Of a stretch of DNA of 64,000 nt, positions 57,459 through 62,986 are shown piece after piece (within the stretch, counting starts at the first letter, position 1; every line of letters starts with the position of its first letter). Origin of the DNA: Acidimicrobiaceae bacterium (GTDB lineage Bacteria; Actinomycetota; Acidimicrobiia; Acidimicrobiales; JAUTXP01); NCBI GenBank assembly GCA_030837965.1, contig JAUTXP010000053.1, positions 16,893 to 80,892 of the forward strand, given 5' to 3'. The notes under the pieces were generated by a model. That model was not told the origin of the DNA, did not search any database, and saw nothing but the letters and a program-made list of their open reading frames with translations. Position numbers and translations under genes: made by a program.

Positions 57459-58513
57459 CAGCCGAGCTTGCCCGCGATGCTCCCCGCCGAGCGCAGGGCG
57501 GTCCCGTCGGCCCCGGCCGAGGTGTAGTGGTGCGTCGGCCGCTGCTCGGCCTCGGCCAGCAGGTCGGCCAGCAGGCGGGGGAACGGCACGTCCCACAGGT
57601 ACTTGGCCAGCGACCCGGGGATGGTGTTGATCTCGTTGACGTACAGCTCCTCGCCGTCGACCAGGAAGTCGATGCGGGCCACGCCCCGTACGCCGGCGAG
57701 GTCGGCCACCTGCGAGGCAATGGAGCGCACCTGCTTCTCCATGGCCTCGGGCAACGCCGCGGGCAGTTCCCGAGGAGCCGACGCCATGCCGCCCTCGCCG
57801 CCCGCAGCGAGGTACTTGTCGGCGAAGCCGAGGATGCTGCCGCCCGTCGACCGCACCGGCTTCTCGATCATCGACAGCTCGACGGCGGGCCAGGAGCGCA
57901 CCCCGACGTTGAGGTCGTAGGCCTGGGGACGGTACGGCTCCACCACGTAGCCATTGCGGAGATGGGGCGACGACCGGGCCAGGGCGGCAAGCGTGTCGGC
58001 GTCGTCGACCAGCTCGATGCCGATCGACGACCCCCCGAAGCGGGGCTTGACGATCCACGGGCCGGGGAGCTCCGGCACGCCGCCGGTGCGCGGCAGCGAC
58101 GGCAACCCCGCGGCCGTCATCACGTTGCCGAAGGCCAGCTTGTCCATGCCCAGCGCGGCGCCCGCCACCGTCGGCCCCGTGTAATGCAGCCCGGCCAAGT
58201 CGAGCGCGGCCTGCAAGGTGCCGTCCTCGCCCGGCCCGCCGTGGCAGCAGTTCACGATGGGGCCGAGGTCGAGCGCCCGTTTCCTGCCCACGAACCCCTC
58301 TCCCGCCACCAGCCGCAACGGCGGTGCCTTGCGGGGCGGCCCGTCGAGGAAGTCGCGCCCCTCGGCCCCGGCGTCGACCTCGAAGAAGTCGCCGGTCTTG
58401 GCCCAGTAGATCGCCGTCACCGCGCCCAGCGCCCGGGCCGCCTGCAAGCCGGTGAGGATGCTCACGTCGTGCTCGGGGGACGGGCCGCCGAAGATCACGG
58501 CAGGGTTGGGCAC
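57458..58513 (-). CDS. ddl: D-alanine--D-alanine ligase (ATP-grasp)
   Basis: GGPSPEHDVS, HGGPGEDG, MDK, KPRFGGSSIGI, FADKY, RIDF, NEINTIPG. Confidence 0.86.
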   Translation of the reverse strand: MPNPAVIFGGPSPEHDVSILTGLQAARALGAVTAIYWAKTGDFFEVDAGAEGRDFLDGPPRKAPPLRLVAGEGFVGRKRALDLGPIVNCCHGGPGEDGTLQAALDLAGLHYTGPTVAGAALGMDKLAFGNVMTAAGLPSLPRTGGVPELPGPWIVKPRFGGSSIGIELVDDADTLAALARSSPHLRNGYVVEPYRPQAYDLNVGVRSWPAVELSMIEKPVRSTGGSILGFADKYLAAGGEGGMASAPRELPAALPEAMEKQVRSIASQVADLAGVRGVARIDFLVDGEELYVNEINTIPGSLAKYLWDVPFPRLLADLLAEAEQRPTHHYTSAGADGTALRSAGSIAGKLG

Positions 58514-59980: not shown

Positions 59981-60717
59981 GGCGCCGCCCGCAGGGCGCG
60001 GTCGACGGCGGCGCGGAGCTCGGCAGGCGCCGCCGTCGGCACCAAGTGGCCCACGCCCGGCAGCACCGTCACCGTCGCCGTCGCACCGGCCACCAGGCCG
60101 GCCGCGGCCGAGGCCACCGACAGGGGCACGTCGGCGTCGCCCTCGCCCCACACCAGTTCCACCGGGCACCGCAGGGCCCGCAACTGCTCCTCGTAGGTCT
60201 CGCTGACCGCCACCACGTGCACCGCCCGCATGATGCCCTGCGCCGCCCGGTAGTCGGCCGACCCGTACCGCTGCCGCACCGCCTCCATCCGCTCGTCGCC
60301 CACCACGCCTCGCCGGTGCAGCGCCCGGGCCAGCCGGAACCGCCAGGCCGGCTTGCGCCGCACCGCCCCCGGCGGCCGCACCAACGGCACGCCGGTCAGC
60401 ACCAGCGCCCGCACCAGCTCAGGTCGGGCCGTGGCCAGGTGGACGGCCACCCGCCCGCCGAAGGAGTGCCCCACCACCACGACCGGCTCCTCGATCGCCT
60501 CGGCCACGGCGGCGGCGTACCCGGCCGCACCCCACGCCTCCGTCGGGGGTGGGGTGGCGCCGAAGCCGGGCAGGTCGAGGGCAACCGCGTCGCAGCCCGC
60601 CAAGGCGGCGTCGAAGTCGCGCGACGTCCGTCCCCACCCGTGCAGGGCGAGCACCCGGGGGGGCGGGTTGCCATGGAGGGTGCCGAACAGGCGGCCGCCG
60701 GCGAAGGCCTTGAGCAC
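59977..60717 (-). CDS. Alpha/beta hydrolase (Ser-Asp-His triad)
   Basis: LHGWG, DLPGFG, GHSFGG, WGEGD, GVGH. GTG 60717 with TACCGT 7 nt upstream. Confidence 0.9.
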   Translation of the reverse strand: MLKAFAGGRLFGTLHGNPPPRVLALHGWGRTSRDFDAALAGCDAVALDLPGFGATPPPTEAWGAAGYAAAVAEAIEEPVVVVGHSFGGRVAVHLATARPELVRALVLTGVPLVRPPGAVRRKPAWRFRLARALHRRGVVGDERMEAVRQRYGSADYRAAQGIMRAVHVVAVSETYEEQLRALRCPVELVWGEGDADVPLSVASAAAGLVAGATATVTVLPGVGHLVPTAAPAELRAAVDRALRAAP

Positions 60718-60808
60718 GCCGGCGACGGTAATCGAAGGACAACCTGTGGACGCGCCGGGGGATTTCTCCTCTATTCGGGGGAAGACCTGGGGATTTACCA
60801 ATACCCCC

Positions 60809-60837
60809 TTGACGCCTATGCAGGGCAGGCGCACACT
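60809..60837 (+). promoter_or_regulatory. Sigma70/SigA-type promoter with no adjacent ORF
   Basis: TTGACG (60809-60814), 17 nt, CACACT (60832-60837). Predicted +1 at about 60844. Confidence 0.6.
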
Positions 60838-60843
60838 TCGATC

Positions 60844-61145
60844 ACTCCGGTAGGAACGCACGGAGCGAACGAGCAGGATGAAGGCCTCAGGCCGACGCCC
60901 GACTCGGGAGCGAAGTGCGGGAGACCCGGAGGAGGGCCGAAGCCGAGGGTGGTGCAGCTTCTCCGGAAGATGCCCGCCAGGTCCGCCTCGCACCGCAAGG
61001 TGAGAGGCGTCACGGAGGCAGAGGACCGAAGGACGGGCCCCAAGAAGTTCGGGCGGCGCTTGCGTCGAATCGGCTACTTGGGGTTCCGTCGCGTACGGCC
61101 CAGGCTGGATGCCGACGGGACCCCCCGCCCGCCGGCGTCCCCTGG
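60844..61145 (+). ncRNA. Candidate structured non-coding RNA of unknown family
   Basis: Series of hand-foldable stems with GNRA-type loops and purine-rich junctions, downstream of a consensus-like promoter. No credible CDS. Confidence 0.55.
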
Positions 61146-61204
61146 CCCCGCCGCTCCCCCGGGCATCCACCGTGGCGCCGGGCCACGTTCCTACGCTCGG
61201 CGAG

Positions 61205-62986
61205 ATGGACCTGCTCGACGACCTCGATCCCGCCCAGCGGGCCGCGGTCACGTCGCAGGCCGCCCCCCTCGCCATCCTGGCGGGCGCCGGGTCGGGCAAG
61301 ACCCGGGCCCTCACCCGCCGCATCGCCTACCGGGTGCACACCGGGGAGGCCGAGGCGGGCCACGTCCTGGCCGTCACCTTCACCCGCAAGGCGGCGGGTG
61401 AGCTGCGCAACCGCCTGCATGCCCTCGGCGTCGACGGCGCCACCGTAGGCACCTTCCACGCCCTGGCCTGGGCCCAACTCCGGCGCCGGGCCCTCGACGA
61501 CGGCCGATGGGCGCCCGCCATCCTGCGCGACAAGGCACGCCTGGTCCCCCGCCACGTCGCCACCCGGATCGAGCGGGCCAAGGCCCAGGGCATCGGCCCG
61601 GCAGGCGACCCCGACTACGAGCACTACGAGGCCGAGAAGCGCCGCTTGGGCCTGCTCGACTTCGACGACCTGCTGCTGCACTGCGCCCAGGCCGTCGAGG
61701 ACGACCCCGCCTTCGCCAAGGCCCTGCGGTGGCGATTCCGCCACTTCTTCGTGGACGAGTACCAGGACGTCAACCCCCTCCAGTTCCGGCTCCTGCGGGC
61801 CTGGCTGGGCGATCGGCTCGACCTCACCGTGGTGGGCGACCCCAACCAGTCGGTGTACGGCTGGAACGGCGCCGATCCCACCCTCCTGGCCCGCTTCGCC
61901 GAGCACTTCCCCACGGCCGAGTCGGCCCGGCTCGACACCAACTACCGGTCGACCGGCGCCATCGTCACCGTGGCTGCGTCGGTCCTCCCGGAGGCGACTG
62001 GTGGGGCGGGCCCGCCGCGTCCGCCGCGGCACGCGGACCGCCCCGGCGCCTCGGTACCCACGGTGCGCGCCTGTGACACCGAACGGGACGAAGCGGACGC
62101 GGTGGCCCGGGCCGTGCGGCTGGCCCGCGCCCCGGGCACGCCGTGGTCCGACATCGCCGTGCTCGTGCGCACCAACGCCCAGCTCCGGCTGCTGGAGGCG
62201 GCCTTCCGGGCCCGGGCCATCCCCCACGCCTCGCCGGGCAACGCCTGGCTGCGCACGACCGAGACCCGGGCCGCCCTGCGAGCCCTGGTCGACACGCCGC
62301 CCGCGGTGCCGTTCCGCTCGGCAGTCAAGGACCTCACCACCGAGCCCCTGGCCGAGCTGGCGGCCGAGTACCAGCGGTTCGACCGGGCGCCGTCAGGTCC
62401 CGGCTTCGTGTCGTGGCTGCACGCCGTGGTGCGCCCCCACGACCGCGACGGCCAGGGCAACGCCGTCACGCTGGCGACCTTCCATGGGGCCAAGGGACTG
62501 GAGTGGCCCACGGTGTTCGTGGCCGGGCTGGAGGACGGGCTGGTGCCGGTGGCGGGCGGCGACGACGACGAAGAGCGCCGCCTGCTCTACGTGGCCCTGT
62601 CGCGGGCCGTCACCTCCCTGCACTGCTCGTGGGCGGCCGAGCGCAACGGCCGGGCCCGACAACCGTCGCCGTGGCTGGCCGACATCGAGGCCGCTGTGGC
62701 CGCTGTGGCCGCTGTGGCCGCGCCTGCCCCCGTGGCCCTTCGCCCCCGTCGCTGCCCGCCCAAGGGCGACGGCGACGCCGTCCTCGACGCCCTGCGGCGC
62801 TGGCGGGCCAACCAGGCCAAGGCAGCCCGGGTGCCTGCCGCTGCCGTCGTCCCCGACGCCGTCCTCGCCGCCGTGGCCAGGGCCCGCCCGACCACGCCCG
62901 GCGAGCTGCAGGCCGTGCTCGGTCCCATGAAGGCCGCCGCCTTCGGCCCGTCGCTCCTGGCCGTGGTGGCGGGCGCCGGGTCGTAG
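61205..62986 (+). CDS. UvrD2-like SF1 DNA helicase with C-terminal HRDC
   Basis: AGAGSGKT, VTFTRKAA, DFDD, VDEYQD, GDPNQSVY, NYRS, TFHGAKGLEW, EERRLLYVALSRA, then HRDC (LRRWR...VPAAAV). ATG 61205 with TACGCT 7 nt upstream. Confidence 0.92.
   Translation: MDLLDDLDPAQRAAVTSQAAPLAILAGAGSGKTRALTRRIAYRVHTGEAEAGHVLAVTFTRKAAGELRNRLHALGVDGATVGTFHALAWAQLRRRALDDGRWAPAILRDKARLVPRHVATRIERAKAQGIGPAGDPDYEHYEAEKRRLGLLDFDDLLLHCAQAVEDDPAFAKALRWRFRHFFVDEYQDVNPLQFRLLRAWLGDRLDLTVVGDPNQSVYGWNGADPTLLARFAEHFPTAESARLDTNYRSTGAIVTVAASVLPEATGGAGPPRPPRHADRPGASVPTVRACDTERDEADAVARAVRLARAPGTPWSDIAVLVRTNAQLRLLEAAFRARAIPHASPGNAWLRTTETRAALRALVDTPPAVPFRSAVKDLTTEPLAELAAEYQRFDRAPSGPGFVSWLHAVVRPHDRDGQGNAVTLATFHGAKGLEWPTVFVAGLEDGLVPVAGGDDDEERRLLYVALSRAVTSLHCSWAAERNGRARQPSPWLADIEAAVAAVAAVAAPAPVALRPRRCPPKGDGDAVLDALRRWRANQAKAARVPAAAVVPDAVLAAVARARPTTPGELQAVLGPMKAAAFGPSLLAVVAGAGS

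Follow-up and report, generated by a model that had tools for sequence, protein, structure and literature searches.

A probable new family of structured RNAs conserved across Acidimicrobiia

Large, abundant structured RNAs that span a whole bacterial class are rare, and 6S, Ms1, raiA, OLE and RNase P RNA each marked a basic cellular process. 6S RNA folds into a single rod whose termini are paired and whose centre opens into a large bubble that mimics an open promoter; it binds the sigma-A/sigma-70 holoenzyme and templates pRNA. In Actinomycetes, the RNA Ms1 (MTS2823 or scr3559) binds the core RNA polymerase (PMC9130861, PMC4191392); it has been found in 14 orders of Actinomycetes, and Acidimicrobiia are not mentioned in that account (PMC9130861). 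The raiA RNA, a complex-folded non-coding RNA of more than 200 nt that shows variable insertions and contains E-loop-like elements, is known from Actinomycetota, among them Acidimicrobiia, where its authors found it with the original covariance model (PMC10861870). Here we describe an RNA gene in a 64,000-nucleotide stretch of an Acidimicrobiaceae bacterium (assembly GCA_030837965.1, contig JAUTXP010000053.1, positions 16,893 to 80,892; hereafter the window), whose genome is a 3.55-Mb metagenome-assembled genome (MAG) of 88 contigs. Positions 60844 to about 61097 on the plus strand of the window very probably encode a new, real and stand-alone structured RNA family that acts in trans and is conserved across Acidimicrobiia. 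This class is ubiquitous in soil, freshwater, oceans and wastewater and has barely been studied genetically. Its role is probably a housekeeping or regulatory one. A preliminary description of the same DNA had proposed a stand-alone large non-coding RNA, possibly new, and this proposal is supported by the absence of Rfam matches, by covariation, by expression and by the variable gene neighbours.

In its general properties the RNA resembles the systems named above. As with 6S RNA, it is abundant, stable, promoter-driven, roughly 200 nt long, single-copy and lineage-wide. It shares with Ms1 the phylum, a length of ~230-300 nt, very high abundance and a strong promoter of its own; both are weakly conserved in sequence between orders, and Ms1 was itself found via synteny and structure, not through Rfam. 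Like raiA, it is a large complex-folded non-coding RNA whose biochemical function is not known. Features of attenuating leaders and riboswitches are also present, as the RNA precedes a conserved gene in the same orientation at slightly more than half of the loci and ends a few nucleotides past a stable hairpin.

The gene and its promoter occupy the following positions.

60844 to ~61097, plus strand: structured small RNA (sRNA) gene of ~250 nt, defined by expression contigs, fold z-score and negative Rfam searches
60809..60837, plus strand: promoter with -35 element TTGACG (60809-60814), 17-nt spacer and -10 element CACACT (60832-60837); predicted start at ~60844

Expression was assessed with assembled contigs from four soil metatranscriptome runs, which were aligned to positions 60700-61400. 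Contig coverage starts at 60852, 60853 or 60857, stops at 61094 or 61095 and occurs nowhere else in the intergenic region. One contig opens with adapter sequence directly before 60853, and three contigs from two runs terminate within 1-4 nt of 61095. The interval 61108-61250 has zero contig coverage, and no contig in the four runs joins the RNA to the downstream uvrD2 gene. A contig that is 94% identical to the window reaches a word depth of 3,474, compared with ~3-30 for most other contigs on the stretch. Furthermore, k-mers of the RNA are present in several soil and rhizosphere metatranscriptome runs. The RNA accumulates as a discrete, very abundant species whose 3′ end lies just past a CGCGU tail. 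The transcript anticipated in the preliminary description is thus seen, with ends at ~60852 and 61095; the 3′ limit given there, 61145, is too far out, as the expression contigs place the end near 61095-61099.

The promoter is a conserved element of the housekeeping type. Among the matches listed, 116 of 125 homologous sequences have a TTGAC-N17-19-nAnnnT promoter at 85-620 nt upstream of the conserved 3′ hairpin, which bears out the earlier claim that the RNA is transcribed from its own promoter. All sequence strings quoted in the preliminary description are present at its coordinates, including TTGACG-N17-CACACT and the upstream element GGGGATTT at 60758 and 60789. A generic E. coli-type sigma-70 promoter scan called no promoter at the RNA locus, because CACACT agrees with TATAAT at only three of six positions. 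The intrinsic-terminator scan found no terminator and no U-tract after any hairpin of the locus. Measured from promoter to end, the RNAs of the family are ~140-680 nt long, with a mode near 255 nt, so the family combines a fixed 3′ module with lineage-specific expansions. Much longer versions, with about 575 and 670 nt separating promoter and hairpin, are present in L008, L017, L033, L045, L056, L071, L084, L102, L108 and L119 (Ca. Aldehydirespirator and relatives) and in L013 and L066, with three tandem GGGGATTTC boxes upstream.

The promoter is followed by ~250 nt of GC-rich, self-complementary sequence. The plus strand of the locus folds at -161 kcal/mol (z = -3.74), and none of 100 dinucleotide shuffles was as stable; with z = -1.11 against shuffles for the minus strand, the excess stability is confined to the strand of the RNA. 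Comparative analysis supports a predicted fold of three tandem domains, with covariation in the sequences of relatives, composed as follows.

60845..60931, plus strand: Domain 1, a long irregular hairpin (minimum-free-energy fold and RNAalifold; inner and apical pairs covary)
60845-60850 with 60926-60931, plus strand: P1, CUCCGG paired with CCGGAG, closes Domain 1; compensatory variants in relatives
60883-60893, plus strand: tip of Domain 1, GGCC-UCA-GGCC, with comparative support
60934..61027, plus strand: Domain 2, closed by the long-range helix Pmid and holding two hairpins
60934-60938 and 60942-60943 with 61018-61019 and 61023-61027, plus strand: Pmid, GGGCC and GC (of GCC 60942-60944) paired with GC (of GGC 61017-61019) and GGACC, spanning a GAA/AGA internal loop
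60954-60973, plus strand: Domain 2 hairpin GCAGCUUC-UCCG-GAAGAUGC, which includes CUUC-UCCG-GAAG at 60958-60969
60985-61008, plus strand: Domain 2 hairpin GCCUC.CACC-GCAA-GGUG.GAGGC, with comparative support
61031..61090, plus strand: Domain 3, the signature 3′ hairpin, with lower stem GGGCCCCAAG/CUUGGGGUUC, an R-A mismatch and AG/CU pairs
61090..61097, plus strand: conserved 3′-terminal tail CGCGU(A/C), predicted to be single-stranded; expression contigs end 1-4 nt past the CGCGU

For the clade of the window (clade A), 12 full-length RNAs were aligned (alignment A3), and RNAalifold predicts 36 pairs. In this set 93.7% of the cells are paired, compared with 85.7% in column shuffles and 29-50% when the 3′ partners are slid by 1-3 columns. 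Double-changed pairs number 16, against 5.2 +/- 1.6 in the shuffles, of which 0 of 500 reach 16, and 3-6 in the slid controls. A second clade of 24 RNAs yields 85 pairs that are 90% paired, with 28 double-changed pairs versus 9-19 in slid controls.

Helix P1 was misaligned by MAFFT and was assessed separately by partner swapping for this reason. Its own partners pair at 6.08 of 7 positions, compared with 5.72 for swapped partners (permutation p = 0.015), which lends modest support to the predicted helix; the compensatory variants in relatives are CUUCAGC/GCUGGAG, CCUGC/GCAGG and CCGAC/GUUGG. Pmid corresponds to columns 100-109 with 195-204 in the 12 clade-A RNAs, where 92-94% of the cells are paired. 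It shows the double changes GGACC/GGUCC and GGAUC/GAUCC, and in L032 it forms a continuous 9-bp helix. Both Domain 2 hairpins carry UNCG or GNRA caps in relatives. The motif CCGCAAGG is present in 46 of the 114 family RNAs and on none of the reverse strands; it underlines how common GNRA-capped helices are, which are typical of RNAs with tertiary structure.

Domain 3 contains a conserved internal loop (..CGG / GGCUA) below a variable apical stem-loop. Across 121 aligned copies, the pairs flanking the pattern used to search for the family covary (GC in 73, AU in 17 and GU in 16 copies; GC in 88, GU in 28 and AU in 5), and A-C never occurs at the R:Y pair inside the pattern. The apical segments, of which 85 are distinct, all form a single hairpin, capped mostly by UUCG, UCCG, GAAA or GCAA. 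The CGCGU tail is fixed 6 nt past the hairpin in four homologues that were known before the pattern was set. When metagenomes were scanned without requiring the tail, 8 of 11 contigs read CGCGU and three (L127, L130 and L135) read CGCGC, so the tail U is not absolutely required. These three contigs show no compensating change elsewhere, and we found no pairing partner for the CGCGU tail. Pairing of the 5′ ACGC region with the tail to form a closing helix looks attractive by eye in a few sequences, is not general and was dropped; an automated RNAduplex search of 114 RNAs for domain-closing stems gave uninformative noise at 70% GC.

Three of the stems in the preliminary description stand, namely GGCC-UCA-GGCC, GCCUC.CACC-GCAA-GGUG.GAGGC and the long 3′ hairpin, and four others are not supported by the comparative data. 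The pairing of CUCCG with CGGAG (60845-60865) is unsupported, and the 5′ end pairs with CCGGAG at 60926-60931 instead. A stem between CCGGAGGAG and CUUCUCCGG is replaced by the local hairpin CUUC-UCCG-GAAG (60958-60969). GCGGG/CCCGC is broken by two changes in an expressed relative, and GGUCC/GGACC gives way to the pairing of GGACC with GGGCC (60934-60938).

The distribution of the family was established by pattern, since a BLAST-type DNA search of 40 relatives, with three weak true matches and one coding false positive (L005), was too insensitive. The search pattern was derived from the invariant 3′ hairpin and tail that the three true matches revealed (CCCCRAGRAG..CUACUYGGGG-N6-CGCGU), and one genome per GTDB species was scanned. 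The pattern matches at least 120 genome records; among the matches listed, almost all are labelled as Acidimicrobiia, Acidimicrobiales or generic Actinomycetota MAGs. The conservation and covariation that the preliminary description had named as a check are both found in these homologues. A second, clade-specific pattern retrieved the 11 metagenome contigs. Records with labels from elsewhere, namely L036 and L110 (Burkholderiales), L066 (Acidobacteriota) and L093 (Bifidobacterium sp.), carry the Acidimicrobiia RNA. They look like binning errors because L036 and L110 have the usual UvrD2-type neighbour, and are probably errors of this kind in co-assembly MAGs. A viral origin was considered and rejected, as the 12 pattern matches in IMG/VR are chance matches in coding sequence that lack the tail or the inner hairpin.

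Known RNA families were searched with cmscan and all 4,227 families of Rfam 15, in which raiA is presumably RF03072. At gathering thresholds, the whole window gave no match to the RNA, and at E<=10 the region 60650-61300 gave only two junk matches, a trypanosome small nucleolar RNA and a microRNA. Eighteen homologous loci (137 kb) returned only transfer RNA (tRNA) and a TPP riboswitch, both outside the RNA. The long variants L017 and L013 returned only junk at E<=10, and their extra domains are without an Rfam match. The absence of a known family, which the preliminary description had judged by eye, thus holds for the RNA of the window and for 20 homologous loci. The 6S model (RF00013) found no match at E<=10 on 60650-61300 and none at E<=1 genome-wide, with positive results in control genomes. 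ARAGORN detected neither a tRNA nor a transfer-messenger RNA (tmRNA) at the locus. The RNase P RNA of the genome is encoded elsewhere (C6:37903-38276, 214.8 bits) and its tmRNA lies on another contig (ARAGORN), which rules out that the RNA is either of the two. Literature searches on 6S RNA or structured non-coding RNAs in Acidimicrobiia returned no description of this RNA.

The predicted architecture sets the RNA apart from each of its closest counterparts. In contrast to the 6S rod with its paired termini, it is built of three domains in tandem and leaves its 3′ tail free; its 5′ end pairs ~80 nt downstream, and its length varies from 140 to 680 nt across lineages. The neighbours of Ms1 are a SerB-like HAD-IB hydrolase and an oxidoreductase; those of this RNA are an alpha/beta-hydrolase and UvrD2, and the HAD-IB/oxidoreductase synteny of the Ms1 type is absent at the window locus. 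Ms1 ends in a plain GC-rich hairpin and this RNA in a sequence-invariant internal-loop hairpin. At five loci (L016, L048, L054, L058 and L085) the divergent upstream gene encodes an NT5C-type 5′(3′)-deoxyribonucleotidase of the HAD superfamily, an assignment based on Pfam NT5C at 1.5e-9 for L048 and on reading by eye for the others. This neighbour loosely recalls the HAD-IB linkage of Ms1 but belongs to another HAD subfamily. The published description of raiA (PMC10861870) gives 51 near-invariant positions and two pseudoknots, whereas in this RNA invariance is confined to one hairpin. Compared with attenuating leaders and riboswitches, the RNA has variable and often convergent neighbours, no U-tract and no Rfam cis-regulatory match.

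The genes on either side of the RNA are arranged as follows.

61205..62986, plus strand: UvrD2-type helicase (Pfam UvrD-helicase 4e-55, UvrD_C, HRDC 1e-14; NCBIfam)
59998..60733, minus strand: divergent alpha/beta-hydrolase (Pfam Abhydrolase_6 1.6e-21)
57461-58513: Ddl, further left of the hydrolase

The downstream helicase has an SF1 UvrD/Rep core and a C-terminal HRDC domain. An in-frame ATG at 61109 could add 32 Pro/Gly/Arg-rich codons (61109-61204) to its open reading frame, and the alignment of homologues favours the ATG at 61205 over this one. The preliminary description had placed the RNA between a Mur/Ddl operon and uvrD2; the uvrD2 side is correct, whereas the immediate left gene is the hydrolase. 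This hydrolase is the left neighbour only in the clade of the window, at 6 of 99 loci. Of 111 loci with sufficient flanking sequence, 62 (56%) have a helicase homologue on the same strand that starts 42-239 nt (median 105) after the RNA, and these UvrD2-followed loci come from many families. At other loci, read by eye, the downstream genes encode a cation-diffusion-facilitator-type transporter, a thiolase, a GGDEF-EAL protein, an acetyl-CoA synthetase or a cytochrome oxidase subunit, and in several loci these non-helicase genes lie on the opposite strand. Because the downstream neighbours vary and are often convergent, we regard the RNA as an independent gene and not as a leader, in agreement with the preliminary description, which had denied a role as uvrD2 leader; the neighbouring genes indeed differ between lineages. 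An obligate cis-leader of uvrD2 is ruled out by the restriction of the helicase to 62 of 111 loci, by the convergent genes elsewhere and by the lack of a bridging contig.

We postulate that the RNA acts in trans as a stable protein-binding RNA within a ribonucleoprotein (RNP). The invariant internal-loop hairpin and the tail would form the recognition element for a protein partner and would also stabilise the RNA, and the variable 5′ and central domains would serve as a structural scaffold that sets the lengths of 140-680 nt. RNA polymerase would be the single most likely partner, and we tentatively suggest that the RNA is a functional counterpart of 6S and Ms1 with a different architecture. 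This guess is based on the lack of a detectable 6S RNA in the genome and of a known Ms1 in the class, on the location of RNase P RNA and tmRNA elsewhere, and on the fitting size and abundance. Whether the RNA is a third, structurally unrelated global regulator that sequesters RNA polymerase, after 6S and Ms1, is accordingly no firmer a suggestion and may well prove wrong. If it is true, the RNA would fill a gap in a major soil, freshwater and marine class without known 6S or Ms1, and the internal loop of the hairpin together with the CGCGU tail would constitute a new polymerase- or sigma-binding module. Given word depths that run into the thousands in metatranscriptomes from soil, the RNA is likely central to the physiology of Acidimicrobiia, perhaps in the control of dormancy or stationary phase. 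It is also usable as a lineage marker in metatranscriptomics. The sequence signature, the draft secondary structure, the defined ends and the set of at least 120 homologues are available as resources, and they make the question of what replaces 6S or Ms1 in Acidimicrobiia directly testable.

Several points weigh against the interpretation given so far. The expression contigs come from assemblies of related soil organisms (88-96% identity) instead of this organism's own reads. They do not reveal the strand, and their depth is a poor gauge of abundance; the strand and the exact ends of the RNA are consequently not proven by them. The figure of at least 120 records is a lower bound that does not fix the true distribution of the family. 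Within the fold, the central junction has an alternative pairing as a local GGC-CGAA-GCC or ACCAU/AUGGU hairpin. The link to a protein partner is one that we infer, and for RNA polymerase in particular the comparative fold differs from the 6S-defining rod with its central bubble. Furthermore, Ms1 was compared using the S. coelicolor scr3559 sequence from the supplement of PMC9130861 and two family profiles, and nhmmer --max at E<=100 detected no similarity to S. coelicolor Ms1; as a positive control, the profile recovers 103 of 114 family RNAs. The frequent helicase gene on the same strand also leaves room for some role in cis.

A housekeeping RNA unrelated to RNA polymerase, either an RNP scaffold or a ribozyme-type RNA with a status like that of raiA, OLE or ROOL, is a possible explanation that we consider about as likely as the polymerase role, because the fold resembles a compact multi-domain RNP or ribozyme-type RNA more than a promoter mimic. 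The GNRA (GCAA) and UNCG caps, the GA-rich internal loops and the long-range helix fit such an RNA, as do the strand-specific CCGCAAGG motif (46 of 114 RNAs, 0 on the opposite strand), the very high abundance and the lineage-specific growth around a fixed core (140 to 680 nt), which is found likewise in RNase P RNA and in P6 of raiA. However, the clades share few invariant nucleotides beyond the 3′ hairpin, unlike ribozymes or raiA with its 51 conserved positions (PMC10861870), and we detected no pseudoknot or tertiary contact.

A tie to the UvrD2-type helicase, with the RNA as a processed or terminated uvrD2 leader or as an RNA cofactor or decoy for the HRDC domain, appears unlikely. The helicase homologue that starts 42-239 nt downstream on the same strand in many families (62 of 111 loci) would suit this explanation, together with the absence of a canonical terminator between RNA and uvrD2 and an attenuator-like 3′ end a few nucleotides past a stable hairpin. 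Nevertheless, in 44% of the loci an unrelated and often convergent gene lies downstream, no contig bridges the RNA and uvrD2, the sequence of the hairpin stem is far better conserved than that of terminators, and a repair helicase would not call for so strong a promoter and so abundant an RNA. Still less probable is a base-pairing sRNA that acts in trans through a conserved single-stranded seed, such as the CGCGU tail or a loop. Its own promoter, discrete size and conserved unpaired 3′ tail would be expected of such an RNA, yet the size, the covarying multi-domain structure and the extreme abundance are atypical for sRNAs of the seed type, and the sole invariant unpaired stretch measures only 5 nt.

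Upstream of the promoter, the intergenic region contains an array of short boxes.

60745..60796, plus strand: upstream box array with TGTGGAC (60745-60751), GGGGATTT (60758-60765), GGGGGAAG (60777-60784) and GGGGATTT (60789-60796)

Counted over 112 distinct upstream regions of homologues, boxes of the GGGGA[TCA] type occur 1.58 times per locus in forward and 0.20 times in reverse orientation, with peaks at ~-110, -100, -80, -60 and -20 relative to the -35 element. Many lineages show strand-biased arrays of TGGGGA(T/C) and GGGATTTCGCG, and in several of them GGGATTTCGCG lies directly upstream of the -35 element. By their sequence and placement, the boxes are candidate regulator-binding sites for the promoter of the RNA, for the divergent hydrolase promoter or for both. 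In L006, L024, L027, L028, L039 and L052, the 100 nt upstream of the -35 element contain five or six TGTCCACA/TTATCCAGA repeats in the same orientation, which replace the TGGGGAT-type boxes and resemble actinobacterial DnaA boxes. A reading of the array as an oriC or DnaA-box cluster was rejected, since neither contig shows a GC-skew switch at the locus and genome-wide clusters are not informative.

The genome contains a second, diverged copy of the whole module on the minus strand of contig C28 (~68,950-69,300). The order there is alpha/beta-hydrolase, transcribed away from the boxes, the promoter and the RNA, followed by a UvrD2-like helicase, and the proteins are 58% and 45% identical to those of the window. 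This copy was missed by the DNA search of the genome and found by pattern search and tblastn. It is either an old paralogue or part of a contig from another Acidimicrobiia organism that was binned together with this genome, for which contamination is estimated at 4.2%. On contig C10 of the same genome, at ~1,280-1,680, the sequence carries the domain-IV hallmark of signal recognition particle (SRP) RNA (..CAGGGCCGGAAGGCAGCAGC..) and is a likely candidate for the 4.5S/SRP RNA gene.

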